Shown here piece after piece: positions 11,221 through 63,661 of a DNA stretch of 64,000 nucleotides. This DNA comes from a virus. Lineage: Duplodnaviria; Caudoviricetes. Made by a program: the position numbers and the translations under genes. Positions within the stretch are counted from its first letter, which is position 1. Each line of letters begins with the position of its first letter. The notes beneath the pieces are model-generated. The model ran no database searches. It had not been told where the DNA came from and was given only the letters and a program-made list of their open reading frames with translations. The stretch is taken from IMG/VR virus record IMGVR_UViG_2648501258_000001, positions 33,613 to 97,612 of that record. One strand, written 5' to 3'.

Positions 11221-11619
11221 ATGACACATCAATACAAAGTAGGTGATCGCGTTAAACTGGTTACGAATGGTAGCTATCCCCACTACAAGCCAGGGATGGA
11301 AGGTACTGTAGTCGGCAAGTCCCGGCACGTAGGTGACGTAGTTGAGGTTGCTGTGGACGGGGATGCTAGATACCCAGAAGGCTTGAACTTCTATCTCCGT
11401 GAAATCACTCCACTCGTAACGGACGAACTCTCAGACGTTGGAATTTTCTTCCTTATCCGTCAAAAGAAAGACGATCCTTCAAAAGTGAAGGTTTGCTGGG
11501 CAGAGTCAACCGTGTCCCGGATGTTCACTAGTCGGGAACGTGCAGAGATTGTTGCTAATCGTCAAAATTTAAACTACCCGGAGTGGAACTACTTCGTTGT
11601 TGCAAAGGAGAGTGTATAA
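11221..11619 (+). CDS. Hypothetical protein, KOW/SH3-like N-terminus
   Basis: YKVGDRVKL; AAGGAG RBS. Confidence 0.7.
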   Translation: MTHQYKVGDRVKLVTNGSYPHYKPGMEGTVVGKSRHVGDVVEVAVDGDARYPEGLNFYLREITPLVTDELSDVGIFFLIRQKKDDPSKVKVCWAESTVSRMFTSRERAEIVANRQNLNYPEWNYFVVAKESV

Positions 11620-12752
11620 TGGTTGAACATACTGAACGTAAACTGGCACGTATCGTCCTGATCGACTCCCTGCACCCAATCGAAGGTGCTGACCGTATCG
11701 AACTAGCAATGGTTGGTGGCTGGCAGGTTGTTGTGCAGAAAGGCTTGTATGTTCCCGGCAGTAAGGCTGTCTACTTCGAAGTAGATTCGTTGCTTCCATT
11801 GGATCGCCCATGCTTTGCGTCTCTGTCGGGTATCAGCTCGAAGCTGCAATTCGTCATCGACGGCCACCAGTATGCTCGCATAAAGACCATGAAACTGCGT
11901 AAGCAGCTCTCTCAGGGCTTCTGTGTGCCTGCAAGCGAAGTGGTAGCCAGCCATTTGGATGTTGATACCGACATGACCAAAGCTCTCGGTGTGATCAAGT
12001 ATGAGAGTGCTGGCGAGAAAGGTATGAATGGTACTCCTGGCATGAAGACTGGTTCTTCTGTGCTTGGCTTCCCGAAATTTATCCCGAAGACTGATCAAAC
12101 TCGTTTGCAAAATATCCCTGTCCAGTTTGCACAGGCTCGGGACTCTGGTGAGCTGTTCGAGAAGACCTTCAAGCTTGATGGCTCTAGCCTCACTGCGTTC
12201 ATTAAGGACGGCACCCTGGGAGTTGCATCTCGTAACGTTGGATTCCGGGTCAAGGATGAAATAATCCCACTGGTCACTGCCGTTAAGAGATTCTTGCAGG
12301 GTAAAGGCTGGAAGCGTGTAATCAAGGCAGATGATAATGCTTTCATTCAAATGGCAGAGAAGGCTGGCCTGCTGTCTGTACTGTCTCGGAAAGAAGTGGG
12401 GCTAGGTAATATTGCAATTCAAGGTGAAATGGTCGGCCCTTCCATTCAGAAAAACTTTGAAGGTGTTGCAGAGAACGAGTTCTACTGCTACGATATTTAC
12501 TTGATTGATGAGCAGCGCTACATGCTCCCTAAAGAGCGTCAGGAATTCTGTAATAAGTATTACATCAGTCACGTTCCTCTGGCTTCTAACCACGCTGTGA
12601 CTCTGCCTGTGGATGTTGCATCTGCTATTGCTGACGCGGACGGTCCTAGCGGCCTGAAAGGTAAATACCGTGAAGGTTTTGTCTACAAGTCGATGACTCG
12701 TGACTTCTCGTTCAAGGTGATCAGTAACGCCTACTTGCTCAAGGAGGAATAA
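11619..12752 (+). CDS. RNA ligase, DRB0094/Rnl5 family
   Basis: RKLARIV..I..I.GADRIE N-domain, PKTDQTR, KLDGSS, QGEMVG, REGFVYK, SFKVISN.YLL. Confidence 0.9.
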   Translation: MVEHTERKLARIVLIDSLHPIEGADRIELAMVGGWQVVVQKGLYVPGSKAVYFEVDSLLPLDRPCFASLSGISSKLQFVIDGHQYARIKTMKLRKQLSQGFCVPASEVVASHLDVDTDMTKALGVIKYESAGEKGMNGTPGMKTGSSVLGFPKFIPKTDQTRLQNIPVQFAQARDSGELFEKTFKLDGSSLTAFIKDGTLGVASRNVGFRVKDEIIPLVTAVKRFLQGKGWKRVIKADDNAFIQMAEKAGLLSVLSRKEVGLGNIAIQGEMVGPSIQKNFEGVAENEFYCYDIYLIDEQRYMLPKERQEFCNKYYISHVPLASNHAVTLPVDVASAIADADGPSGLKGKYREGFVYKSMTRDFSFKVISNAYLLKEE

Positions 12753-41204: not shown

Positions 41205-41226
41205 GAAAACCCACACAAGGTGGGTT
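41205..41226 (-). terminator. Terminator ending the tRNA cluster
   Basis: ACCCAC-CTTGT-GTGGGT-TTTC. Confidence 0.7.
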
Positions 41227-41293
41227 ATTCTGCACAAGACGTATCGGCTAAGGCAAGCTCTAGGCTGCAATGGTTGTCCCGATTGTCTATGTT

Positions 41294-41368
41294 TGGTGTC
41301 TTGTAAAGCTGTGCTTTCATCGTCTCAAAGGATCGTTATATGACACAGCCATCTACCAGATGCAAGAC
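41294..41368 (-). ncRNA. CCA-ended tRNA-like RNA lacking T arm
   Basis: GTCTTG/CAAGAC-A-CCA, CATC-TGGTA-GATG, GCTGTG/CACAGC. Confidence 0.6.
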
Positions 41369-41374
41369 ATTATT

Positions 41375-41448
41375 TGGTCGCCTCTGTGGAATCGAACCAC
41401 ATCCTCCGCAGCTAATCCACGGTACTCTCCCTGTTGAGCTATCGGGCG
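41375..41448 (-). pseudogene. Degenerate tRNA with TTA at the anticodon position
   Basis: D and T arms plus CCA; loop GATTAGC lacks U33; 3 acceptor mismatches. Confidence 0.6.
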
Positions 41449-41452
41449 TAAC

Positions 41453-41528
41453 TGGTGCATTCTCGTGGTTTCGATCCACGTCATCTGGGTTTTCAAGCCA
41501 GTGCTTCTACCAAGTTAGCTTAGAATGC
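41453..41528 (-). tRNA. tRNA-Phe(GAA)
   Basis: Loop TTGAAAA; cloverleaf; CCA. Confidence 0.85.
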
Positions 41529-41532
41529 AATT

Positions 41533-41606
41533 TGGTGCTTCATGATAGAATCGAACTACCGTAGCTGGCATGTAAGACCAGCGTTCTGCCATTGAACTAA
41601 TGAAGC
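41533..41606 (-). tRNA. tRNA-Val(TAC)
   Basis: Loop CTTACAT; cloverleaf; CCA. Confidence 0.9.
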
Positions 41607-41610
41607 AAAT

Positions 41611-41686
41611 TGGTGCGGGATTAGGGAGTCGAACCCTAGTTACTCGGGTGGAAGCCGAGAGTATTAGACCTCTATACGAATCACGC
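41611..41686 (-). tRNA. tRNA-Gly(TCC)
   Basis: Loop CTTCCAC; CCA; A73. Confidence 0.88.
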
Positions 41687-41691
41687 ATGTT

Positions 41692-41766
41692 TGGAGTATC
41701 TTACTGGAGTTGAACCAGTCTAAGTGGGTTTGCAATCCACTACCTCAGCCGCTCGGACAAAGACAC
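41692..41766 (-). tRNA. tRNA-Cys(GCA)
   Basis: Loop TTGCAAA; U73. Confidence 0.88.
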
Positions 41767-41773
41767 TTTAAAT

Positions 41774-41853
41774 TGGTGGAAGCTCCGAGGATTCGAACCC
41801 GGCTGCTGTTCTCAGTGCAAGTGAGATGACCACTCCTAGCAGTCCCAGCCCCC
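41774..41853 (-). tRNA. tRNA-Ala(TGC)
   Basis: Loop CTTGCAC; G3-U70. Confidence 0.85.
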
Positions 41854-41873
41854 ATAAATCGTTGTAACTAAAT

Positions 41874-41948
41874 TGGTGTGAGGTGGAGATTCGAACTCCA
41901 ACAATCGTTTCACAGACGAAAGTGTCAGCCAGTGACAACGGCCTCACC
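41874..41948 (-). tRNA. tRNA-His(GTG), atypical
   Basis: Loop CTGTGAA; A73 rather than C73. Confidence 0.75.
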
Positions 41949-41955
41949 ATTAAAT

Positions 41956-42030
41956 TGGTCACTCGGGGGTGGAGTCGAACCACCGCCACTTCGTTCCAAA
42001 CAAAGTACGCTACCGTAACGCTTCCGAGAG
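41956..42030 (-). tRNA. tRNA-Pro(TGG)
   Basis: Loop TTTGGAA; C1-G72, A73. Confidence 0.85.
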
Positions 42031-42053
42031 ATTGTCCTTACGGACTATAAAAC

Positions 42054-42127
42054 TGGTGGACCGCTGACTTCGCTCTTTACCAGAAGACTGTCGTCATTAA
42101 CCGCTAGCATCACGTGCAGAGCAGCCC
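42054..42127 (-). ncRNA. CCA-ended non-cloverleaf RNA (74 nt)
   Basis: GGGCTGCT/AGCGGTCC-A-CCA with G3-U; no T loop. Confidence 0.6.
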
Positions 42128-42133
42128 ATAAAT

Positions 42134-42218
42134 TGGTGGTTCATCTAGGACTCGAACCTAGGATGTATCGTTGTGCCGGGTTACAGCCGGTCGTCTTCGC
42201 CGCTCGACGCAATGAACC
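42134..42218 (-). tRNA. tRNA-Tyr(GTA)
   Basis: Loop CTGTAAC; long variable region. Confidence 0.88.
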
Positions 42219-42225
42219 ATGAATC

Positions 42226-42308
42226 ATCGAAGTAGCTCTACCGTCTGAGCTTACATTGAGGGGCGACCCCTAAAAGGTGGGACTCGAACCCACGCACACT
42301 TCTTCAAT
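42226..42308 (-). ncRNA. Circularly permuted tRNA mimic (YrlA-like architecture)
   Basis: Order T arm, capped acceptor-like hairpin, D arm; ends pair ATTGAAG/CTTCGAT. Confidence 0.7.
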
Positions 42309-42479
42309 TGGCGGCAAAGGAAGGGAATTGAACCCACCGCTACTAAGTCTCTTCACTTATCCTACTCTTCCGTGTATAGAGCGGTGTAAGCTATCATACG
42401 TTTCACTAGCCCCAGATACACATGAACTTTATGCCTACACGGGGGGCGTACTCATTCATGATCCACTTGGCTCAGAGCC
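42309..42479 (-). ncRNA. 171-nt CCA-ended tRNA-like RNA with kissing loop
   Basis: T loop TTCAATT, GCCA end, CCGTGTA/TACACGG loop complementarity. Confidence 0.7.
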
Positions 42480-42486
42480 TTTAAAT

Positions 42487-42572
42487 TGGCTGGCGCGGTA
42501 GGGCTCGAACCTACAAGACCTTTCGGAAGCTCCGTTAACAGCGGAGTGCAGTACCATTATGCTTACACGCCA
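42487..42572 (-). tRNA. tRNA-Asn(GTT) with long variable arm
   Basis: Loop CTGTTAA; G73; extra CC-GAAA-GG arm. Confidence 0.85.
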
Positions 42573-42573
42573 A

Positions 42574-42939
42574 TTATTCTTCTATCTTCAACCTGACATG
42601 TTCTTCGCGGTGGCAGTTAGCACACAGCATAACACATTTATCAAGTTCGATTTTAATCTTCTCAAAAGACTTCGTATGCCCATTCGCGGAGATACCAAAG
42701 TCCTTCTGTGTTGGATCAGTGTGATGGAACTCAAGAGCAGCAGAACATTTGTCATACCCGCAGCTTTCACACTTACCGCCTTTATATTCAATCGACAAAG
42801 CTTTCAGTTTCAATCGCCTACGCTGCACTGCTTCTGACAAGCACTTACAGCAACGATACTTCATGATCTTTGGATTGTCAAGTCGGAAGTTTGTCTCTCC
42901 GTGTTTCTGACAGGTTCGAACTACTTGTTCCCTTACCAC
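42574..42939 (-). CDS. HNH endonuclease in tRNA cluster
   Basis: KGGKC..CGY....ALEFHH.DP, KC..LCANCH...H; GTG start after GGAGG. Confidence 0.88.
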   Translation of the reverse strand: MVREQVVRTCQKHGETNFRLDNPKIMKYRCCKCLSEAVQRRRLKLKALSIEYKGGKCESCGYDKCSAALEFHHTDPTQKDFGISANGHTKSFEKIKIELDKCVMLCANCHREEHVRLKIEE

Positions 42940-43049
42940 ATTACCTCCATTAAGACCCACGCCCGGTGAGAACATTACCTATAAATCTGATAGAGACTAT
43001 ATTTAGACAGCACACTCTATCTGGCTGTATACGTGGGGAGCCACATATA

Positions 43050-43129
43050 TGGTTGCGAAAGGAGGAATCGAACCTCAAGCATCTGGTTATGAGCCAGTTA
43101 ACAGCACCAGCCGTCTTAGCGCTCTCGCA
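43050..43129 (-). tRNA. tRNA-Met(CAT)
   Basis: Loop CTCATAA; CCA; initiator/elongator/Ile2 status unresolved. Confidence 0.8.
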
Positions 43130-43243
43130 TTAAATTGGTTTGTTGTAAGCGCTTTCAAGCCTTCCCAGTATCCCAGACCAACTCAGTCGTCTCGGTGGGG
43201 CATTCATCGGGTCGCATATTTCAGCTTCTTTAAACCCTGAATC

Positions 43244-43317
43244 TGGTTGCTCGTGAGTGAATTGAACACCCCTAAGACGCTTATCAGGCGACTGCATTAC
43301 CACTATGCTAACGAGCA
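43244..43317 (-). tRNA. tRNA-Ile(GAT)
   Basis: Loop CTGATAA. Confidence 0.88.
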
Positions 43318-43323
43318 ATAATT

Positions 43324-43397
43324 TGGTGCCCCAGTAGAGAATCAAACTCCAATCCCCGGATTACAAAACCGGTGCATCATCATAATGCTTCAAGGGC
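43324..43397 (-). tRNA. tRNA-Thr(TGT)
   Basis: Loop TTTGTAA. Confidence 0.85.
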
Positions 43398-43570
43398 AAT
43401 GTGAGCAGTTCTACGACATGCTCAGGCCGGGCGTATTTGCATCATGCTTGAGCCTTACCACAGGCCCACTTTACCGCGTTGATGTTTGCGGGATAAGCCT
43501 ACCGAGATGGCTTTCTCATTGCGACAGACTACAGGATTTCAAACTGCATGTCTACCCTCGGGCAACAAAT

Positions 43571-43650
43571 TGGCGACCTATATGGGTAACGATCCCATCT
43601 GAACATCTCCCGTGACAGGGGAGCAACCACACCGTGCAGTACCATAAGTC
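43571..43650 (-). tRNA. tRNA-Asp(GTC)
   Basis: Loop CTGTCAC; G73; atypical T loop ATCGTTA. Confidence 0.82.
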
Positions 43651-43656
43651 ATTGTT

Positions 43657-43734
43657 TGGTTTGTCGAAGTAGGAACCGATTACCTACGCCATATCATTGC
43701 TTTCGCTCGGACAGCCAGTAAAGGCTTCAACAAA
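43657..43734 (-). ncRNA. CCA-ended RNA with 10-bp terminal helix
   Basis: TTTGTTGAAG/CTTCGACAAA-CCA. Confidence 0.6.
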
Positions 43735-43735
43735 T

Positions 43736-43812
43736 TGGTACACCATCGGGGACTCGAACCCCGTTCATGAGGGTGAAAACCTCATATCCTAAACCTCGTA
43801 GACGAATGGTGC
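43736..43812 (-). tRNA. tRNA-Glu(TTC)
   Basis: Loop TTTTCAC. Confidence 0.88.
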
Positions 43813-43821
43813 ATTAAATCT

Positions 43822-43953
43822 TTAGGCTGTTTCACCAGACACTGGGTGTTTGGTTTTCAGACCTTTGTTCGGGTGACGACCTTTCGACTCTTTCAAGCGA
43901 GTGGTCTTATCAACCGGAGCATGTTCTTTTGTAGCATCATATGGCTTTGCCAT
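43822..43953 (-). CDS. Small basic peptide (43 aa) in tRNA cluster
   Basis: AAAGGAGA RBS; MAKPYDATKEHAPVDK...VSGETA. Confidence 0.6.
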   Translation of the reverse strand: MAKPYDATKEHAPVDKTTRLKESKGRHPNKGLKTKHPVSGETA

Positions 43954-43980
43954 TTTCTTTCTCCTTTGTCGTTTCTAATT

Positions 43981-44058
43981 TGGTACACGGGACAGGGGTC
44001 GAACCTGCCTAAAACGCCTTCGTAGGGCGGTGCCTCAGTCCAATCGAGCCACCCGTGT
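43981..44058 (-). tRNA. tRNA-Arg(ACG)
   Basis: Loop CTACGAA. Confidence 0.88.
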
Positions 44059-44078
44059 ATGTCGTTGCTATATGGAGA

Positions 44079-44106
44079 AGTTTACACGACATTTACACAA
44101 TGTCAA
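44079..44106 (-). promoter_or_regulatory. Internal tRNA-cluster promoter
   Basis: TTGACA-N16-TAAACT. Confidence 0.65.
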
Positions 44107-44131
44107 GCGTTTATTTCAACATATTTTAAAT

Positions 44132-44206
44132 TGGTACTGGATGTTGGATTCGAACCAACCTAAAGAGGCTTAGAAGGCCCCTGCACATCCACTGTACCAA
44201 TCCAGT
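44132..44206 (-). tRNA. tRNA-Arg(TCT)
   Basis: Loop CTTCTAA. Confidence 0.9.
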
Positions 44207-44211
44207 ATGTT

Positions 44212-44379
44212 TGGTCGGTGCCCTCGGGGGATGATCCCGTAAGATGATGCTTTCCTCTTGCTTGGGTGGGCTACGCACGCCACTTGCACAAGTCTACTGA
44301 CACTTCTCCATGACCCACTTCCAGAATCCTTCCAGCCTGCGTAGTGGGCCTTTCAGATTCATCCAGTTGTCTTACACCG
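44212..44379 (-). ncRNA. 168-nt CCA-ended tRNA-like RNA with kissing loop
   Basis: CGGTGT/GCACCG-A-CCA, CTACGCA/TGCGTAG complementarity. Confidence 0.7.
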
Positions 44380-44389
44380 TTTATTAAAT

Positions 44390-44465
44390 TGGCGGGCTAC
44401 CGAGGATTCGAACCCCATCCGCATGGCTTTGGAGGCCAGCATGCATGCCATCACAATCGTAACCC
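44390..44465 (-). tRNA. tRNA-Trp(CCA)
   Basis: Loop CTCCAAA; G73. Confidence 0.85.
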
Positions 44466-44569
44466 TTAATTCGTAGGAGACATTTATAACACGCTGTCTC
44501 CTGAGCGTCAACACATAAGAGTTGGTTTCTTATGCTCCATCCCAAGGCGCTTGAACTCCCAGGTATGTC

Positions 44570-44645
44570 TGGAAGAGGATGCTGGAATCGAACCAGCTTA
44601 AACGGAGTCAAAGTCCGGTGCCTAATGCCAATCGGCCAATCCTCA
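44570..44645 (-). tRNA. tRNA-Gln(TTG)
   Basis: Loop CTTTGAC. Confidence 0.88.
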
Positions 44646-44770
44646 ATTGTTAGTACCGAGAGTCTTCTCCGGTTTCGAACCCTTTGTCAACTCTCTAGCT
44701 GCCTTCCCTATACGTCACCGCGAGCCGGTCAGGCTGGGAATCGAACCCGGCGTATAGGTATTTCAGTGTT

Positions 44771-44848
44771 TGGTAGGGCACCTCGGACTCGAACCGAGAA
44801 GCTCCTGATTCTAAATCAGGAAGGTAGACCAATTCCCTTCAATGCCCC
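44771..44848 (-). tRNA. tRNA-Leu(TAG), short variable arm
   Basis: Loop TTTAGAA; A73. Confidence 0.88.
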
Positions 44849-45291
44849 AATAGTCTTCTGCTGAATTGACTGTGACAATTGGGACACAAGAATCGTAGAT
44901 TCTCTGCTCTATCGTCTAGCCAGTTTTCATTTATATGATCAACATCTAAAGTCAATGGACTACCCATCCACTCTGGCTCTTGACCACATTTACTGCATTC
45001 GTGTTTAGTTCCCGACTCAATCAACGCCCTGACAAGGTGATGGGACTTTGCTCGTCTACCTTCTGTGCGGAGAATCAGAATATCACCTGATGTTTTTCGC
45101 TGCCTACTTATCGAACCCTTTGCATGAGCTTGACCTGTAAAGTGCGCTGTACAAATACCAATGCGACGTATCCTATTCGTGTAGTGCGAGTGACTGCCTC
45201 CCGCTTGCTTCAATCCAAGCTCTCGTAGGACTTCGTAAATACTGTAGCATCTACTGACAATGATTGCAAGCTGTTCATCTGTTACTTTCAT
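44839..45291 (-). CDS. HNH endonuclease in tRNA cluster
   Basis: CSKCG..W...L.LDVDHIN..W.D....NLRFLCPNCH. Confidence 0.88.
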   Translation of the reverse strand: MKVTDEQLAIIVSRCYSIYEVLRELGLKQAGGSHSHYTNRIRRIGICTAHFTGQAHAKGSISRQRKTSGDILILRTEGRRAKSHHLVRALIESGTKHECSKCGQEPEWMGSPLTLDVDHINENWLDDRAENLRFLCPNCHSQFSRRLLGH

Positions 45292-45307
45292 CGTCTCTCC
45301 TTTTGTT

Positions 45308-45384
45308 TGGTGGGCCTTCCCAGACTCGAACTGGGATCATCTTCATTTTGAGTGAAGCACGTCTGCCAATTGCATCAAAGGCCC
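45308..45384 (-). tRNA. tRNA-Leu(CAA), short variable arm
   Basis: Loop CTCAAAA; A73. Confidence 0.88.
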
Positions 45385-45461
45385 AAATTCGTACTGACGA
45401 CCAGAATCTCACTGGAGTAGGTCTCGGGACTTTATGTCAGTCATACCCAAAACACTTTATT

Positions 45462-45550
45462 TGGAGGCGGGTAAAGGAATCGAACCCTCACCGGCTACTA
45501 ACCAGTGGCGCAGTTTTCAAGACTGTGTACCGCCATCGGTGCTACCCGCC
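45462..45550 (-). tRNA. tRNA-Ser(TGA)
   Basis: Loop CTTGAAA; long variable arm. Confidence 0.88.
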
Positions 45551-45655
45551 GAAATTTAGACCAGCGTAATTGGGACTCTTACCCCATTTGTTTGAGAAAC
45601 CGCTCGCTGGCTCGACGGCTCAATGTTTGTCATATCAGGAGCGACCTGATCATTC

Positions 45656-45743
45656 TGGCAGAGCATGTAGGATTCGAACCTACGGAGCGTTTCCACTCTA
45701 TGGGTTAGCAACCCACTACCATCGGCCTCTCGGTCAATGCTCT
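45656..45743 (-). tRNA. tRNA-Ser(GCT)
   Basis: Loop TTGCTAA; long variable arm; G73. Confidence 0.9.
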
Positions 45744-45747
45744 ATAT

Positions 45748-45824
45748 TGGTTGGACGCCCCAGACTCGAACTGGGAACCTACCGGGTAAAAGCCGGTTAT
45801 TCTAAACCATTGAATTAGCGTCCA
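45748..45824 (-). tRNA. tRNA-Lys(TTT)
   Basis: Loop CTTTTAC. Confidence 0.9.
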
Positions 45825-46201
45825 ATAAATTCTACTGTCTGCCCTCTCGCGAGCTTCCAGTGTGTTTCTCTGTGGCAATTAGAGCATAGCAGAACACACT
45901 TGTCAATCTCTTCTAGAAGATTTTCTTTAGACATACTCCATCTCTTATTGATTTGGAAGTCCTTGTGTTCAGGATCTACGTGGTGAAACTCTAGGGCAGC
46001 TGTACAGGCGCTGTATCCACAAAGAATACACCCACCACCTTTCTGCGCTACAAGCCATCTTGACTTCTCTTCGTATCTTGCCATGTTTCTAGCATTAAAA
46101 CAAGCTTTACATTCACTCATTAGATTACCAGAAGTTTTCCTTCCCTTGGCGTAATACTCACTTTCTTGCTTTTCTAAGTTGCATTGTGAACAGATTTTCA
46201 T
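45815..46201 (-). CDS. HNH endonuclease in tRNA cluster
   Basis: KGGGC..CGY....ALEFHH.DP, KCVLLCSNCH...H. Confidence 0.88.
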   Translation of the reverse strand: MKICSQCNLEKQESEYYAKGRKTSGNLMSECKACFNARNMARYEEKSRWLVAQKGGGCILCGYSACTAALEFHHVDPEHKDFQINKRWSMSKENLLEEIDKCVLLCSNCHRETHWKLARGQTVEFIGR

Positions 46202-48277: not shown

Positions 48278-49036
48278 ATGAAACGTAATCAACAACAAGT
48301 AAAAACTAAACGTGCATCCGTGAAAGAAGCAACTGGCCGGACGGTTAAGCCTAAGTTTGTAGAAGCCCGAGAGGAAGGCAGAACAAGTGCCAACACAAAG
48401 CCTCTAGTGCCCCGAAACGAAAAGCAAGCCCGCTACATCCAGTCCATCAACGAGAACCCTCTCACAATCGCCACAGGCTACGCTGGCACATCTAAGACCT
48501 ACATCCCCACAGTAATGGCTTGCGATGCTTACCTCAAAGGTGAGATTGATAAGATTGTGTTTGTTCGTCCTAACGTTTCCAACTCAAAAAGCCTTGGCAT
48601 GTTTAAAGGGTCTGCTGTTGAGAAGATGGAAATGTGGTTGATGCCTGTAATCAACATTCTCCGTGACCGCCTAACTACTGGTGGACTTGAAACAGCAATT
48701 GAGAATGGCAACATTCAGTATGTTCCTCTGGAAGTCATCAAGGGTTTCAGTGCTGAGAACTGTTTCTTCATTGTAGACGAAGGCGAAGACATTACCATCG
48801 AAGAGGCTATCAAGATCGTTACTCGCCAGGGCAAGGGTTGCAAGATGGTAATCTCTGGCGACGTTGGACAATCAGAGTTGAAAGAACGTAGTGGTCTAAA
48901 ATTCATCACGCACATGGTGCAAAAGCACAGCAACTTGAAGGCTGGCTTTATTGACTTCAACCACGTAAATGACATTGAACGTGATGATTCCTGCAAACAA
49001 TGGATCATCGCACTAGCTAAGGAGGGAGTACAATGA
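48278..49036 (+). CDS. phoH: PhoH-like ATPase
   Basis: PRNEKQ, G.AGTSKT, VRP, IVDE.E, TRQG, SGD..QS. Confidence 0.9.
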   Translation: MKRNQQQVKTKRASVKEATGRTVKPKFVEAREEGRTSANTKPLVPRNEKQARYIQSINENPLTIATGYAGTSKTYIPTVMACDAYLKGEIDKIVFVRPNVSNSKSLGMFKGSAVEKMEMWLMPVINILRDRLTTGGLETAIENGNIQYVPLEVIKGFSAENCFFIVDEGEDITIEEAIKIVTRQGKGCKMVISGDVGQSELKERSGLKFITHMVQKHSNLKAGFIDFNHVNDIERDDSCKQWIIALAKEGVQ

Positions 49037-49611
49037 GTGCTGAGTCACCTAATAGAATCTTGGTCAAAGAAGATGTAGCACGGACTTACATCATCCGTAT
49101 GTCCCGTGATGTTTCACTGGCAGATGATTTTGAAGATGAATTCCAAGTTCTGGCTGCTGCTGGTCCTAATGATCTGGTTAAGATTCTGATCAATTCTGAC
49201 GGCGGTAATCTGGCATCAGCCCAACTGATTTGCAAGGCTATCCGAGAATGCGAAGCTCACACTGTGGCATTCATCGGTATGTTTTGTGCCTCGGCGGCTA
49301 CAGCTATTGCACTGGCCTGCGATGAGTGGGAGATTGATGACAACAGTAGCTTCATGATCCACACAGCCACATACGGCTTGTACGGTAAAGCTCCAGAGGT
49401 TGCTGCACAGCACCGTCACATGGAACGAGCAGTGAGCCGATTCTGTGTAAATACTTACACCGGATTCTTGACACCAGAGGAAATTCAAGCTGTAATCGAC
49501 GGCAAGGATTACTGGTTTGACGGTGAAGAGCTTGCAGCACGTCTGACTTCCTATGCTGAATTCCGTGAAGCAGTCTACGCAGCGGTTGACAGTCCAGAAG
49601 AACCTGAGTAA
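49033..49611 (+). CDS. ClpP-like protease
   Basis: INS.GG, CASAAT.I.LA, FMIH. Confidence 0.85.
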   Translation: MSAESPNRILVKEDVARTYIIRMSRDVSLADDFEDEFQVLAAAGPNDLVKILINSDGGNLASAQLICKAIRECEAHTVAFIGMFCASAATAIALACDEWEIDDNSSFMIHTATYGLYGKAPEVAAQHRHMERAVSRFCVNTYTGFLTPEEIQAVIDGKDYWFDGEELAARLTSYAEFREAVYAAVDSPEEPE

Positions 49612-51776: not shown

Positions 51777-52302
51777 ATTGAGTCTAGCTGAACGCTGGGA
51801 GGCAATGTCTGGTGCAGAGCAAGATGCTGTCAGGGCGCTACATCAAGTTTTGCTGGGCGCTAAGGCGTTTCCTCAGCAGTACTCTGATCCCGTACAAGTC
51901 ATTGAAGATATTGAATTCACACTTCAAGGTCTTTGGAAGTTTGATCGAAGCAGGGACCACCACACCCACTGGATTGACATTAAAGGCTGCACTTGCCCTA
52001 AAATTGACAACGAAGGAAGCTGGGGTATGGCTGGGCGGATCGTCGCAATCGGTTGCAAGTGGCATTGGAAAGAACCGGAGCCAAAAACTTATGCTGTCGC
52101 ACTGGTCTCGGAGTCCTGCGACCACTACCTCGACGCTTTCAAGGCTCACTCGGTAGAAGACCTTGTGCAGCAAATGAAGGATGCCTATGGTGATGAGTTC
52201 TATTACATGGACCGGGTTGACATTACCTCACCAGATGGCGGACAAGGTGAGCTTGCAGAACGTGCTGTTAGACAAGCAATTGAAGAAGGAGAAGACGAAT
52301 GA
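51766..52302 (+). CDS. Hypothetical protein
   Basis: E..LQ.LW.F......H.HW....C.CPK.DN....C..H conserved phage motif. Confidence 0.7.
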   Translation: MSSELSLAERWEAMSGAEQDAVRALHQVLLGAKAFPQQYSDPVQVIEDIEFTLQGLWKFDRSRDHHTHWIDIKGCTCPKIDNEGSWGMAGRIVAIGCKWHWKEPEPKTYAVALVSESCDHYLDAFKAHSVEDLVQQMKDAYGDEFYYMDRVDITSPDGGQGELAERAVRQAIEEGEDE

Positions 52303-53507
52303 TGCTCGTAGAACTATTCGGTAAAGACAAAGGCGGCAAGTACAAGGTGTGGGCTATCGGGACAACCGAGAGCGGCGACCTGACCATTGCCCACGGGCAA
52401 GAGGGCGGTAAGATGACCGTCAAGATGGAAAAGGTCTCCCCAAAGAACGTTGGTCGTGCAAACGAGACAACACCTGAACAACAGGCAGATATCGAAGCTC
52501 ATGGCCGCATCAAGAAGCAACTTGACAAGGGCTATCGTCAGACCAAAGAAGAGCTGGACAGTCTCCCAGTGCTTCCAATGCTCGCTGGCGATTACAACAA
52601 GATCGGGCATCGCATCAACTACAAGAAAGGCGTGTATCTGTCGGACAAGCTCGACGGTGTTCGGATGATGGCGAAGTGCCTGAAAGATGGTACGATCACT
52701 CTGGAGAGCCGTACAGGTCAACCGTATAGCTTACCCCATATTGCGGAAGAGCTTAAATGGATCATGCAACCGGGGGATATCCTTGACGGTGAAGCTTATC
52801 TGCATGGGCACGCTCTACAAGATATCACGTCTGCTGTGAAGCGAACTGATCCTGAAAAGAAGGTAGCGGCTGCTCGCAAGAAGGTGGAAAAGGCTTGCGG
52901 TGGGGATCAGGTCAAGTTTGTAGAAGCTCAGGCAGAATACGCCGAAGCAATCATGATCGAAGAGCTTCGTCCTAAGCTTCAATTCGTAATCTTCGCCGTA
53001 ATTGAGAGTGAGACTGTTTCTCAAGACATGCCGTTTAGTGAAGTGGTTATTAAAACCTACGGGTATCGCAACTACCGTGCGATGGGTAACGAGTTCATCA
53101 AGTTCATCCACTATGAGCTGGCACATAGCGAAGAAGAGATGAAGGTGGCTCACAAGAACTCTGTTCGTCGTGGCTTCGAGGGCATCATGATCCGCAACGC
53201 AGACGGCGTTAACGAAAGTGGCAAGCGTTCGGCTGACTTGCAGAAGTATAAAGAGTTTGTTGACTCTGAGTTCTTGATTCTGGATGTTCTGCCAGCTAAA
53301 GACGATGGCTCGACATTCCTTGTGCAAAACGACTTGAACGGTGAGACGTTCTCGGTTACACTGGGTTCAATGGCTCAACGAGCTGAGTTCCTGGCGAACA
53401 AAGAGCTTTACATTGGCAAGCTGATCACTGTACAATATCAGTCTCGCTACAAAGATACGCTTCTGCCTCAGTTCCCGACAGGCAAAGCAATCCGTGATTA
53501 CGAATAA
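52299..53507 (+). CDS. ATP-dependent DNA ligase
   Basis: PMLA, KLDGVR, LDGE.Y, FEGIMIR, KYK.F, PQFP. Confidence 0.92.
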   Translation: MMLVELFGKDKGGKYKVWAIGTTESGDLTIAHGQEGGKMTVKMEKVSPKNVGRANETTPEQQADIEAHGRIKKQLDKGYRQTKEELDSLPVLPMLAGDYNKIGHRINYKKGVYLSDKLDGVRMMAKCLKDGTITLESRTGQPYSLPHIAEELKWIMQPGDILDGEAYLHGHALQDITSAVKRTDPEKKVAAARKKVEKACGGDQVKFVEAQAEYAEAIMIEELRPKLQFVIFAVIESETVSQDMPFSEVVIKTYGYRNYRAMGNEFIKFIHYELAHSEEEMKVAHKNSVRRGFEGIMIRNADGVNESGKRSADLQKYKEFVDSEFLILDVLPAKDDGSTFLVQNDLNGETFSVTLGSMAQRAEFLANKELYIGKLITVQYQSRYKDTLLPQFPTGKAIRDYE

Positions 53508-56337: not shown

Positions 56338-57177
56338 ATGACTGATTTCAACGAAGACCTGTACCACACTACCGACAAGGCTCCACGTGGCCGAATCTCC
56401 ACCCGTCAGTTTCTGTTCCCTGGCGGTGAGGTGGGCATCAATGTTAACGTGTTGGAACCAGACTATGGTGTCAGTCATGTCAAGCTCTTTGCACGTGCAA
56501 AGAATTCAGATAATCTGATGGCTGTTTTCATGGCGACTGATGCCCTGGAGCGTGTGTATCCAAACGCACGGATTAGTCTGAGCCTTCCCTATATTCCGTA
56601 TGCCCGCCAGGACCGCGTATGCAACCCTGGAGAGGCTCTGAGCATCAAGGCTGTAGCTCGGCTCATCAACGCACAGAACTACGCCACAGTGCGTGTTGTA
56701 GACCCTCACAGCCCCGTCAGCGTGGCACTGATCGACCGTGTTATGGTGACTGATCAATACGAAGTGTTTGGACGTATCAAACAAAACTGGTCGGATTGGA
56801 CTATTGTTGCTCCAGATATGGGAGCTTCCAAGAAGGTAGAAGACTTCGCTAAGCGAGTAGGCGCTAAGGGTGTTATCACGTTCAACAAGACTCGTGAGCT
56901 GTCTACTGGGAAGATCACAGGCATGCATTGCCTCGATCCTATCGACCCCAATGGGAAGTTCTTGGTTTTGGATGATATCTGCGATGGTGGTCGCACATTC
57001 ATCGAGCTGGCACAGCACTTCATGCGAGGGGTACACACCCTGGAGTTGGCAGTGACTCACGGCATCTTCTCGAAGGGCGTGGAATGCGTCACTCAGCAGT
57101 TTGATATGGTCCACACAACCGATTCGTTCCACAGTGGCTTGCTTGAGAAAGCTGGCCTAAACATCATTAAAGTATAA
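56338..57177 (+). CDS. PRPP-synthetase-like protein (NARP1 Adps-type)
   Basis: FPGGE, PY.PYARQDR, DPHS, PD.GA, DDICDGG.TF, THGIFS. Confidence 0.9.
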   Translation: MTDFNEDLYHTTDKAPRGRISTRQFLFPGGEVGINVNVLEPDYGVSHVKLFARAKNSDNLMAVFMATDALERVYPNARISLSLPYIPYARQDRVCNPGEALSIKAVARLINAQNYATVRVVDPHSPVSVALIDRVMVTDQYEVFGRIKQNWSDWTIVAPDMGASKKVEDFAKRVGAKGVITFNKTRELSTGKITGMHCLDPIDPNGKFLVLDDICDGGRTFIELAQHFMRGVHTLELAVTHGIFSKGVECVTQQFDMVHTTDSFHSGLLEKAGLNIIKV

Positions 57178-58666: not shown

Positions 58667-60457
58667 ATGAAGCCATTTGCACCCCACATGGTTGACGTTT
58701 ACAAGATTGGTCACGCTGACATGTACACCGAAGGCACTGACTTCCTGTACAGCAACCTGACTCCACGTTCGGATAAATACTTCCGTAATTCTGGCGTATC
58801 GAAGATGTATGACGGCAAGATGGTCGTATTCGGCACCCAAGGTTCGATCATGGAAATCGTCGAAGATTGGAACGACTCGTTCTTCTCTAAGCCGAAAGAA
58901 GATGTGATCCGTCGCTATCGCCGTCGCGTTAATGGCGTAATCGGTAAGGGCAAGGTGTCTACCTCTCGTATGGAAGCTCTGCACGACCTCGGCTATCTGC
59001 CGCTGGAAATCAAGACCATCGACGAAGGCGCTCGCATTGGCATGAAAGTCCCAATGCTGACCATCAAGAACACCGTACCTGAATTCTTCTGGCTGGTGAA
59101 CTACCTGGAAACTGCACTGTCTGACCAAATCTGGCAGTTGGCAACCAACGCGACTATCGCCTACGAGTACAAGCGTATTCTGACGGCAGCAGCTCTGCGT
59201 ACTGGTGCTGCTGTAGAAGCTGTAGCTTTCCAAGGTCACGATTTCTCCATGCGTGGCATGCCGGGTTACATCGCAGCCTCTCGCTCTGGTTCGGGCCACT
59301 TGGCATCGTTCTCAGGCACTGACACTGTTGGTGCAATCGACTACATTGAGGACTACTACGGCCAGGGTCTGGACTTGGACGCATACTTCATTGCTGGCTC
59401 CATTCCTGCGACTGAACACGCTGTTAGTTCGAGCAACATCCTGACTCGTGCTGCTGAATTTCAAAAGCGCTACCCTGAGATGACAGAAGAAGACGCTCGG
59501 CTTCGTGGTGAAGTGGCGTTTTTAATGCACTACATCACACGATTGAACCCCAACGGATTTTGCTCGTATGTTGCAGATACTTACGACTACTGGGCTGTAT
59601 TGACTCAAATTCTAACTTTGGAATCTGTTAGAGCTGAAATCCTGGCACGTGATGGCCGTCTGGTGATCCGCCCCGATTCTGGTGATCCACTGACCGTTAT
59701 CTGTGGTAGCATTGACAAGGTGTATAAGACTCTGGAAGAAGCTCTCGACGCAGAGCGTGACGCTCACTACGAAGAAGCTGCGGAAGACTGCGAAGGCTCG
59801 CACAACATTGGGGCTGATTACTACGATACTCTGGTGTATATCACAGAAGAGTCGAAGTATTACATTATCAAGACCAAGTTCGAGTACAACCGCCACGACA
59901 AGCAATACTACTACATCGACAACTATAGTTCCGATTGTGGTGAGCCTGTTGCGACAGAAGTACAACCTTCGGCTGAGATGAAAGGCTCGATCCAGCTGCT
60001 GTGGGAGACCTTTGGCGGTACTGTAAACGCTGCTGGCTTCAAAGAGCTTGACTCGCACATTGGTCTGATCTATGGTGACTCGATCACCCTGGGCCGTGCC
60101 CAAGCGATCACGGATCGTCTGGAAAAGCTAGGCTTCGCATCGACCAACGTAGTGTTCGGGATCGGTAGCTACACCTACCAGTGCAACACCCGTGACACCT
60201 TCGGCACTGCGATGAAGGCAACTGGTACTGGCGTAGACGGAGAGTTCTTTGAAATCTACAAAGACCCTGCCACTGGTGACAAGCTGAAACAGTCTGCACG
60301 TGGTCTGCTGCGTGTTGATCTGGTGGATGGCGAGTACGTTCTGACTGATAAAGTCACTACGGAGCAAGAGGCTGGTGGTGAGTTGAAGGTCCGTTTCCGT
60401 AACGGGGAATTCTTCAATGTAGTAAACATTGACACCATCCGCCAACGTTTGGCATAA
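58667..60457 (+). CDS. Nicotinamide phosphoribosyltransferase-like protein (NARP1 Namat-type)
   Basis: D.YK..H, HDFSMRG, GTDT, SIPATEH, DTYD, IRPDSGDP, GLIYGDSIT, TRDT. Confidence 0.92.
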   Translation: MKPFAPHMVDVYKIGHADMYTEGTDFLYSNLTPRSDKYFRNSGVSKMYDGKMVVFGTQGSIMEIVEDWNDSFFSKPKEDVIRRYRRRVNGVIGKGKVSTSRMEALHDLGYLPLEIKTIDEGARIGMKVPMLTIKNTVPEFFWLVNYLETALSDQIWQLATNATIAYEYKRILTAAALRTGAAVEAVAFQGHDFSMRGMPGYIAASRSGSGHLASFSGTDTVGAIDYIEDYYGQGLDLDAYFIAGSIPATEHAVSSSNILTRAAEFQKRYPEMTEEDARLRGEVAFLMHYITRLNPNGFCSYVADTYDYWAVLTQILTLESVRAEILARDGRLVIRPDSGDPLTVICGSIDKVYKTLEEALDAERDAHYEEAAEDCEGSHNIGADYYDTLVYITEESKYYIIKTKFEYNRHDKQYYYIDNYSSDCGEPVATEVQPSAEMKGSIQLLWETFGGTVNAAGFKELDSHIGLIYGDSITLGRAQAITDRLEKLGFASTNVVFGIGSYTYQCNTRDTFGTAMKATGTGVDGEFFEIYKDPATGDKLKQSARGLLRVDLVDGEYVLTDKVTTEQEAGGELKVRFRNGEFFNVVNIDTIRQRLA

Positions 60458-62377: not shown

Positions 62378-63661
62378 ATGCAAGTAGTGAATAAGCCAAT
62401 CGAATTTGATCTGGAAACTGTGGTAGCGGAGGAAGTTCCATTCCTGTCCACGTTCTATCGCTATAAGGGCGAACTGAACCAAGACGTTTGCGATCTACTT
62501 GCATTTCCTGTGGCGAATAAGTCAGCGATGCCGTTCTACACCATCAAGGAATCGACGACATACAAACTGAACACTCAGTTTGAAGACTATTACAAGATGA
62601 TGGTAGCTGCCCTCAAGATTGCTTTCGATGACCGAGAACTGATGGATCGGTTCTTTGACTGCCACTTCTGGCGTGAGCATGGTGATCGTTTCCTGCCATA
62701 TGCCAAGGCTACCTTCGAACGTAAACATCCAGCCCTGTATGGCCGATATGATGCTTGCTTTGACCCTGAGACTGAACAGCTGAAAGGGATTTACGAGTTC
62801 AACGGCGATACTCCGGTAATGCTGTTCGAATCCGTCAACCTTCAAGCTCGCCTCTCCAAGCAACTTGGAACGGACCAGTATAATAACTGGTGGGAAGTCT
62901 TCGAGCATAAGTTTGCACATGGCTATAAGAATGTAGCTGTTGCTTGTGGAACAGACTATGTAGAAGACATGGCAACCTGTGAAACCGTGGCACAAGCTTT
63001 TGGCTCTGCAAGGAGTGACCGAAACGTCAGCTTCCTGGATTTGAAAGAACTAGACTATGACCACATGAACCTGTCAAAGCCTTGGATTGCACGTGATAGC
63101 TTTAAGCCGCTGGACGCGATTTACATCTTGAGTCCGTGGGAAGAGATGATTGAAACATTCCCAACTATGCTTGATCACTGGGAACGTTGGATCGACAATG
63201 TGCATTTGTTCGAGCCTGCGTGGCGTTGGTTCTTGGCTCACAAGGGTATGACTGCTCTGTGTACTTACCTGTGTGATAGCGAAGAGGACTTCTGGCTAGA
63301 ACACTACAGTGCCACTCGGATTCTACTTCCCACTTATCTGGAAAGCGAAGTTAAGGCTGGCCCTGACGTCCGTTTCACTGGCAAGTGGGTTGAGAAACCT
63401 GTTGTAGGTCGCCTGTCGAACAATATTAAAATCTGGAATGAAGGTAAGCTGGAAAGTGATACTGGTGGTTTCTACAGCGACGAGAACACTGTATTCCAGT
63501 TGTACACTCCACCTAAGAAGGTGGAAGGTCGTAATAACTTCATTCTTGGGATGTGGATGTGTGGCGAGTACTCTGGTAGTCTATGTGCCCGTGAGTTTGA
63601 CAGTGAAGTGCTGTCTATCTCGAATGAGCGGTGGATTCCGCATATCGTAGTGGAGGGCTAA
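62378..63661 (+). CDS. Glutathionylspermidine synthetase-like ATP-grasp ligase (YgiC/YjfC-like)
   Basis: LYGRYD, YEFNGDTP..L.ES, PWE.M, EPAW....HKG, KP..GR...NI. Confidence 0.88.
   Translation: MQVVNKPIEFDLETVVAEEVPFLSTFYRYKGELNQDVCDLLAFPVANKSAMPFYTIKESTTYKLNTQFEDYYKMMVAALKIAFDDRELMDRFFDCHFWREHGDRFLPYAKATFERKHPALYGRYDACFDPETEQLKGIYEFNGDTPVMLFESVNLQARLSKQLGTDQYNNWWEVFEHKFAHGYKNVAVACGTDYVEDMATCETVAQAFGSARSDRNVSFLDLKELDYDHMNLSKPWIARDSFKPLDAIYILSPWEEMIETFPTMLDHWERWIDNVHLFEPAWRWFLAHKGMTALCTYLCDSEEDFWLEHYSATRILLPTYLESEVKAGPDVRFTGKWVEKPVVGRLSNNIKIWNEGKLESDTGGFYSDENTVFQLYTPPKKVEGRNNFILGMWMCGEYSGSLCAREFDSEVLSISNERWIPHIVVEG

Follow-up and report, generated by a model that had tools for sequence, protein, structure and literature searches.

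Clusters of transfer RNA (tRNA) genes in phages are usually annotated as tRNAs and unexplained gaps. We analyzed the gaps of an operon for 23 tRNAs in an Otagovirus-like Pseudomonas myophage, using a stretch of 64,000 nucleotides (nt), here called the window, which corresponds to bases 33613-97612 of the 97.6-kb virus record IMGVR_UViG_2648501258_000001. On the evidence of aligned sequences, the elements S1, S3b, S4 and S16 in these gaps are RNA structures under selection across the clade of related phages, and each occupies a fixed place: S1 is the leader of tRNA-Ser(UGA), S3b that of tRNA-Gln and S4 that of tRNA-Trp, and S16 stands before the terminator. The predicted folds of these RNAs appear to be new and recur across a clade of cultured phages, and no family of Rfam 15 was matched. 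Overall, we read the spacers of the operon as a mosaic that includes modules for processing or stability, transcribed along with the tRNAs, and stable by-products akin to RNA C and RNA D of phage T4, a reading to which we assign a probability of roughly 0.6.

Conserved RNA structures within the tRNA operon

The 4.8-kb stretch with the tRNA genes resembles the equivalent regions of Pseudomonas myophages that belong to the genus Otagovirus or are akin to it; PPSC2 and Bitten match best (each about 32% query cover and about 86% identity). Sixteen spacers were cut from the operon, named S1 to S16 in order of transcription and compared by nhmmer with 22 related loci (L numbers), which comprised 19 GenBank phage records and three IMG/VR contigs (L011-L013); L012 and L045 are incomplete. 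The features and the numbers of matching loci are listed in Table 1. In agreement with the single polycistronic layout proposed in a preliminary description of this DNA, all parts of the operon lie on one strand and are bounded by promoter-like sites and an intrinsic terminator, the stem of which covaries at one pair.

Table 1. Features of the tRNA operon and its spacers, with the number of the 22 related loci matched by nhmmer. S3 was searched as one spacer (S3a with S3b).
Feature	Position in window	Strand	Description	Matching loci
tRNA operon	45824 to 41205	-
23 tRNA genes (span)	41453..45824	-	ARAGORN -ps90
128-aa open reading frame	45815..46201	-	just upstream of tRNA-Lys; weakly HNH-like (Pfam HNH 20.0 bits, below the cut-off of 21.4)
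S1	45551..45655	-	conserved RNA with predicted pseudoknot, about 105-120 nt; spans the interval from tRNA-Ser(GCU) to tRNA-Ser(UGA)	20
S2	45385..45461	-	filler, 77 nt; z = -0.88; environmental contig joins across it	0
HNH homing-endonuclease open reading frame, 150 aa	44839..45291	-	Pfam HNH 26.5 bits (cut-off 21.4)
S3a	44699..44770	-	fossil T-arm of a lost tRNA in a local hairpin	10 (whole S3)
S3b	44646..44698	-	conserved long hairpin, 5' leader of tRNA-Gln	10 (whole S3)
S4	44466..44569	-	tRNA-Trp leader; hairpins HP-a and HP-b and H-type pseudoknot (44467-44513)	20
S5	44207..44389	-	183-nt spacer; ACCA end 5 nt before tRNA-Arg	0
S6	44059..44131	-	predicted sigma-70-type promoter, TTGACA-16-TAAACT at 44106-44079	7
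S7	43822..43953	-	gene for a conserved, very basic 43-aa protein, with ribosome-binding site; between tRNA-Arg(ACG) and tRNA-Glu	20
S8	43651..43735	-	77-nt cloverleaf-shaped unit (43657-43733)	0
S9	43398..43570	-	173-nt spacer; found in L009 alone (92% over 96 nt); z = -0.04	1
S10	43130..43243	-	two hairpins and single-stranded tail ACAA(C/U)AAACCA, ending 6 nt before tRNA-Met	5
S11	42976..43049	-	sequence-invariant core of about 45 nt; tRNA-Asn leader in relatives	14
133-aa open reading frame	42574..42975	-	Cys and His motifs; no Pfam match; skipped in relatives' environmental contigs
S12	42219..42486	-	268-nt insertion; contains two T-arm fossils, with a CCA (42309) after one of them	2 (5' part; one weak)
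S13	42031..42133	-	tRNA-sized unit (42054-42127): 7-8-bp acceptor-like stem, A, CCA	2
S14	41377..41452	-	conserved tRNA-like RNA: cloverleaf, perfect T-arm, TTCGATT T-loop, ACCA	7 (one weak)
S15	41292..41376	-	7-bp stem directly followed by CCA; no T-loop	1
S16	41227..41291	-	conserved branched hairpin, about 58 nt, just upstream of the terminator	18
Intrinsic terminator	41208..41226	-	GC-rich hairpin (7-bp stem) followed by T-run
aa, amino acids; bp, base pairs.

S1 is made up of the hairpins P1, P2 and P4 and a variable hairpin, and the loop of P2 is predicted to pair with the 3' tail. A covariance model of S1, named R1, found the element in all 21 relatives searched and in a further contig (L055). 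A search with a 14-nt S1 pattern gave mostly chance matches; R1 retained four among the 80 loci listed, three of which were already known. In the three hairpins 93.7% of 300 alignment cells were paired and 9 of 15 pairs showed compensatory changes, a score that was reached by none of 500 shuffles. The duplex of loop and tail had energies of -9.6 to -13.0 kcal/mol in all 20 sequences, with a mean of -11.4 kcal/mol for cognate and -6.8 kcal/mol for non-cognate combinations. The evidence for this second helix consists of the duplex energies, and the pseudoknot is plausible, if less firmly established than the hairpins. In all eight annotated relatives checked, the 3' end of S1 was located 3-11 nt upstream of the second tRNA-Ser. 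A self-cleaving ribozyme of the hepatitis delta virus (HDV) or another type was rejected by reasoning, with no dedicated test, as the required inner helices are missing and Rfam gave no match.

The 47-nt core of S4 consists of two interleaved helices, which overlap a promoter-like sequence, TTGACG-17-TATAAA. All 231 cells of this pseudoknot were paired, 7 of 11 pairs were compensatory and none of 500 shuffles reached the score. Changes on both sides of a pair occurred in two of five pairs of helix 1 and in five of six pairs of helix 2, and the core was classed as an H-type pseudoknot on this basis. It ends 1-10 nt upstream of a tRNA-Trp homologue in the window and in the six relatives checked (in L046 according to the annotation). 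The hairpin HP-b, upstream of the core, varies in its stem and keeps the loop sequence A(A/C)CCAAC; in 11 of 21 sequences this motif was located in the loop of a hairpin, and the stems that carried it were of many kinds. Several further ideas were discarded. The generic promoter motif TTGAC-N11-14-GTGNTA has a single occurrence in the window, which is S4 itself. A preQ1-like riboswitch was rejected in view of the missing Rfam match and the long and stable second stem. A kissing pair between the loops of HP-b and S10 is complementary in the window and not in L047 or L002. The nick motif of PMC11780129 was set aside as well; it is a different motif and belongs to 45-kb phages.

The remaining two structures are hairpins. 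In S3b, 91% of 100 cells were paired and five of ten pairs were compensatory; for S16 together with the terminator stem, the values were 97.1% of 380 cells and 9 of 20 pairs. For both, the covariation score was reached by none of 500 shuffles.

Conservation of this kind could also reflect signals at the level of DNA, such as promoters, operators or targets of homing endonucleases, instead of RNA structure, and parts of the operon fit such an explanation. S6 matches the sigma-70 consensus at 10 of 12 positions, has a small inverted repeat between its hexamers, and retains the -35 hexamer and TGTCGTGT in all seven aligned sequences. The core of S11 also indicates a sequence signal, because it hardly varies and a single pair is compensatory (mean column identity 83%, 32 invariant columns, z = -2.2); in the window, an HNH-like open reading frame (ORF) stands between this core and tRNA-Asn. 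In phage phiK7A1 (L005, 2157-2265) the S11 core is repeated in tandem about three times. In S4, the hexamers TTGACG and TATAA(A/G) are almost invariant and 17 nt apart; they were read by eye, since our promoter scan demands T at the last position and does not list S4. On the other hand, interleaved stems with 100% pairing are impossible in duplex DNA. In phage VCM (L039, 4033-4079) both S4 hexamers are lost, but both stems are kept, one of them through a swap of A-U to U-A. Moreover, the S4 core is single-copy in all five whole genomes searched, and it therefore does not represent a generic promoter class. S1, S3b and S16 have no conserved promoter hexamers, the TTGACA within S3b not being conserved. 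As an account of the conserved spacers we thus consider DNA-level signals unlikely. S4 itself appears to combine an internal promoter with an overlapping pseudoknot, which would form in read-through RNA.

According to the preliminary description, almost every longer spacer folds as a discrete unit. Taken singly, the spacers gave weak evidence for this, with z-scores of -0.04 to -2.50 and values of -1.9 or below for S7, S11 and S6 alone. As a set they stood out, with a mean z of -1.12 versus -0.39 in 48 coding segments matched to them in length (p = 0.0017, Mann-Whitney test), and units ending in (N)CCA were enriched (see below). A scan with the Rfam 15 covariance models at gathering score revealed no family besides tRNA in the window. 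At E ≤ 10 the spacers gave noise alone (YrlA, 18 bits, E = 4.6; mir-2232, 21.7 bits, E = 0.68), so that no spacer has an Rfam family match.

By our reading of their topology, S1 and S4 resemble the H-type pseudoknots known from small riboswitches and from viral tRNA-like structures. The S4 helices of 5 and 6-7 bp are interleaved, with a first loop of 2 nt and an A/U-rich last loop of 9 nt. In S1, the loop of one hairpin is predicted to pair with the 3' tail beside a T-arm-like hairpin. Both differ from these families in that Rfam gave no match at E ≤ 10 and a CCA end is lacking, and the second stem of S4 looks stable without a ligand. PMC10690425 reports 10,006 candidate structured RNAs in IMG/VR phages, identified by covariation and including tRNA-like and cis-regulatory ones, and this set may contain S1, S4 or S16. 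No description of non-tRNA RNAs in Otagovirus tRNA clusters was found in the literature, the candidate lists of PMC10690425 not having been compared.

tRNA-like units ending in CCA

The preliminary description had noted six CCA ends in the spacers (41294, 42054, 42309, 43136, 43657 and 44212), and each of these positions indeed is the A of a CCA on the minus strand. Four spacer units of tRNA size combine a 7-bp acceptor-like stem with (N)CCA, compared to 0.31 expected, and none of 1000 shuffles reached this number. A CCA ending 4-8 nt upstream of the downstream tRNA was present in 3 of 12 abutting spacers (0.87 expected, P = 0.047). The full combination of a 7-bp stem, a discriminator base and CCA at tRNA size was found in S8, S13 and an internal unit of S5. 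S15 has no discriminator base, the stem of S14 is limited to 4 bp and the tail of S10 is single-stranded. S5, S8, S10, S13, S14 and S15 gave no match to the tRNA clan of Rfam even at E ≤ 10, and neither S14 nor S8, S13 or S15 combines a T-loop with an anticodon loop of 7 nt that carries U33.

The clearest of the tRNA-like units, S14, was aligned from the window and six relatives (L001, L002, L006, L012, L042 and L043), and two of its D-stem pairs covary; the weak seventh nhmmer match (E = 0.00055) was omitted. Apart from the short acceptor stem, S14 is unusual in having either a 6-bp stem with a 5-nt anticodon loop or, if a 7-nt loop is assumed, an A at position 33. Its copies in relatives are called as tRNA-Leu(UAA) at relaxed ARAGORN settings alone. 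The central triplet of the loop varies: the window has UUA, which would match the stop codon UAA, PPSC2 has UAU, and the other five relatives have UAA. The rest of S14 is 83-93% identical.

The other units are less widely distributed. The S13 unit has no T-loop in its consensus fold and has homologues with about 82% identity in L001 and L013; a search with an exact S13 pattern yielded no contig beyond one already known. In S10, the tail is conserved and five of nine predicted pairs are compensatory among six sequences. S15 (z = -1.5 and -1.7) is 96.6% identical to its homologue in L012. The S8 unit has a 7-bp acceptor-like stem followed by A and CCA, ends 6 nt before tRNA-Asp and has no T-loop; a 21-nt exact pattern of S8 was not found in viral contigs. 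Within S5 (z = -0.22), a 78-nt unit at 44267-44344 has a perfect 7-bp stem and C-CCA. S8 and S5 were without homologue in the 22 loci. Like canonical tRNAs or their pseudogenes, S14 has a cloverleaf, a T-loop and ACCA, and S8, S13 and S15 have tRNA size, a 7-bp stem and CCA; unlike canonical tRNAs, no spacer unit matched the Rfam tRNA model at E ≤ 10, and S8, S13 and S15 have no T-loop.

To our knowledge, RNA C and RNA D of T4 are the only well-known non-tRNA products of phage tRNA clusters, and we know of no function assigned to them in about fifty years. The parallel to these RNAs drawn in the preliminary description holds for the layout: rnaC (species 1) and rnaD (species 2) likewise are RNAs other than tRNAs, and their genes share a strand and an operon with the phage tRNA genes. 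In T4, the tRNAs are followed by a homing endonuclease gene and then, at the end of the cluster, by rnaD and rnaC; the fold of rnaC includes a T-arm as well as a terminal stem. No homology to T4 was detected for S1, the element compared: a search of the tRNA region of T4 with model R1 gave no match at E ≤ 1. In contrast to T4, the elements of the window are interleaved among the tRNAs instead of standing at the end, the best conserved ones are pseudoknots or hairpins, and they are known from sequence alone. PMC9697503 still describes RNAC and RNAD as 'of yet unknown functions'.

The preliminary description had interpreted the spacer RNAs as trans-acting decoys or effectors against host nucleases that target tRNAs, possibly assisted by an RNA ligase of the phage. 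The enrichment of tRNA-like units with NCCA ends would fit this idea. So would S14, which is tRNA-like and conserved and has an anticodon loop that is aberrant and varies in its central triplet, and it has been proposed that phage tRNAs evade anticodon nucleases (PMC10264068). A ligase of the Rnl5 type is indeed encoded: the product of ORF 11583-12752 combines an N-terminal OB domain (PHA02142, 83.2 bits) with an RNA_ligase domain (76.4 bits), and its best relative of solved structure is the Naegleria gruberi RNA ligase (5cot, E = 2.6e-53), which we take to be the prototype of Rnl5. A further ORF, 52299-53507, codes for an ATP-dependent DNA ligase and not for an RNA ligase. However, the RNA ligase gene is located about 29 kb from the tRNA operon with no sign of a link to the spacers, and nothing ties any spacer to a defence system. 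Furthermore, the best conserved elements, S1, S3b, S4 and S16, are not tRNA-like, and S8 and S5, the most tRNA-like of the unique units, are absent from all 22 relatives. A role of the spacer RNAs as decoys or effectors seems improbable to us.

tRNA genes, small genes and remnants

With default settings, ARAGORN detected 19 tRNAs, all on the minus strand. The setting -ps90 added those for Phe, His, Met and Trp, and confirmed the previously proposed set of 23 tRNAs for all 20 amino acids. In the direction of transcription, the order is Lys, Ser-GCU, Ser-UGA, Leu-CAA, Leu-UAG, Gln, Trp, Arg-UCU, Arg-ACG, Glu, Asp, Thr, Ile, Met, Asn, Tyr, Pro, His, Ala, Cys, Gly, Val and Phe. An encoded CCA closes 21 of the 23 calls, and those for Pro and His stop 2-5 nt short of a CCA. 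At the gathering score (29 bits for the tRNA model RF00005), Rfam gave 17 tRNA matches in the window, among them tRNA-Phe (41456-41528, 46.8 bits), which is absent from the default ARAGORN list. tRNA-Met (28.7 bits) and tRNA-Trp (23.1 bits) had sub-threshold matches alone, in both cases to the model of tRNA-Sec. tRNA-Ser-UGA likewise matched the tRNA-Sec model alone and below the cut-off, and a search at E ≤ 10 gave no match for tRNA-His. Homologues of tRNA-His, -Met, -Trp and -Phe were found in 15, 7, 11 and 15 of the relatives' loci, respectively. In several GenBank records the tRNA-Trp homologue is present but unannotated directly after the S4 core, e.g., in PPSC2 (L001) at 2900-2977, and the published tRNA counts of several relatives are therefore probably too low.

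S7 is a protein gene. In a tblastn search, homologues with 58-92% identity were found in 20 of the 22 loci, where the frame is open for 40-44 amino acids and lengths differ by whole codons. The protein is annotated as a coding sequence in several relatives and has no Pfam family. Three further ORFs belong to or border the operon. Besides the HNH homing-endonuclease gene, these are the ORF upstream of tRNA-Lys, which has a promoter-like site at 46211-46183, and the ORF next to S11 (42574-42975), which by our own reading of its Cys and His motifs is like an HNH nuclease.

Other spacers contain pieces of tRNA genes. S3a shares 15 identical nucleotides with the T-arms of tRNA-Lys and tRNA-Met of relatives, and its position in the alignment is that of the T-arm of the tRNA preceding the S3b element there. 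S12 has 17 nucleotides identical to the T-arm of tRNA-Glu; its 5' 123 nt are shared with L044, and contigs of relatives skip 42220-42482. These exact T-arm fragments, together with the lack of S12 in close relatives, point to decay and turnover of tRNAs in the operon. For S2, neither nhmmer nor blast gave a match in the 22 loci.

The estimate of about a dozen structured RNAs in the preliminary description is consequently too high, since the spacers include a protein gene (S7), a promoter (S6), a sequence motif (S11) and several others that lack conservation or hold tRNA fossils. A lack of conservation in relatives had been named there as speaking against a role of the spacer RNAs. S2, S5 and S8 are indeed unconserved, S9 and S12 are so for the most part, and S1, S3b, S4 and S16 are conserved. 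This raises the question of whether the spacers in general are neutral debris, i.e. decayed tRNA genes, scars of homing endonucleases and filler. The fossil T-arms would be explained in this way, as would the missing S12 and second HNH ORF in close environmental relatives, the spacers with one homologue (S9, S15) or none (S2, S5, S8), and the varying order and content of tRNAs among relatives. Debris cannot account, however, for the compensatory changes and the clade-wide retention of S1, S3b, S4 and S16 or for the covariation in the D-stem of S14. As a general account it is refuted by this covariation, and we regard it as improbable.

Environmental contigs from four runs, three of them RNA libraries, represent relatives of the region that lack S12, S2 and one HNH ORF; contigs from RNA libraries are uninformative on transcription, RNA ends or abundance. 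A metagenome scan with a neighbouring 272-amino-acid protein gave nothing above 70% amino-acid identity.

Outside the operon, genes for PhoH-like and ClpP-like proteins (48278-49611, plus strand) lie on the strand opposite to the tRNA operon, as they do in relatives. On the plus strand, a ribose-phosphate pyrophosphokinase-like gene (56338-57177) is located near a gene of the nicotinate/nicotinamide phosphoribosyltransferase family (58667-60457), and this pair presumably indicates phage-encoded salvage of nicotinamide adenine dinucleotide (NAD). The ORF 62378-63661 (plus strand) has a glutathionylspermidine-synthase pre-ATP-grasp domain.

Proposed roles of the spacer RNAs

Our preferred reading, a mosaic of processing or stability modules and stable by-products, takes the observed features, their conservation and their covariation as its basis, from which we infer transcription, cleavage, stability and function. 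S1, S3b, S4 and S16 would be transcribed together with the tRNAs and would work chiefly in cis, by punctuating the polycistronic precursor and making it more stable. They could insulate neighbouring tRNAs during folding, set entry or stop points for endonucleases and shield 3' ends. S1 would be the best candidate for a free stable RNA once RNase P has cut the downstream tRNA, because its own 3' tail would be buried in the pseudoknot. A second class would be derived from tRNAs and include S14, S13, S15, S8 and part of S5, and S10 by virtue of its tail only. tRNA-processing enzymes would excise these NCCA units as in the case of RNA C and RNA D of T4. Relatives retain some of the units, of which S14 is the most widespread, and others are recent or decaying. 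S1 and the units ending in NCCA would probably persist as stable RNAs in free form.

Several points weigh against this reading. The role in cis in processing is deduced from position alone. Single-sequence folding is unremarkable (z-scores of -0.55 for S1, -1.28 for S4 and -0.99 for S16), and the shuffle control of covariation takes no account of kinship among the sequences. The pseudoknot of S1 is based on about four sequence variants, and the cognate duplex ranks first among eight tails in just four of eight distinct loops. None of the public sequencing runs contained more than 31% of the sampled words of the region. Finally, S2, S5 and S8 without homologue in the 22 relatives, and S9 and S15 with one each, may be neutral.

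A more far-reaching possibility, which we regard as speculative and with a small chance of being correct, is that S1 and perhaps S4 and S14 are trans-acting RNAs with new folds, which would be excised by tRNA-processing enzymes of the host and bind a host factor, e.g., an RNA-processing enzyme or a defence nuclease targeting tRNAs. If this were true, the tRNA operon would serve throughout the Otagovirus clade as a cassette that delivers small effector RNAs.

In summary, a second group of phages, unrelated to T4, carries at least four non-tRNA operon elements with selected structures at fixed positions, and S1, S4, S16 and S14 are candidates for new RNA families to be curated. Some of the 'gap' sequence in Otagovirus-like tRNA clusters represents a conserved micro-protein gene and promoters. 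Since the elements occur in about twenty cultured phages, they are open to deletion and probing, which makes an old question testable, namely whether the non-tRNA RNAs of phage tRNA operons are processing aids, stable by-products or effectors.

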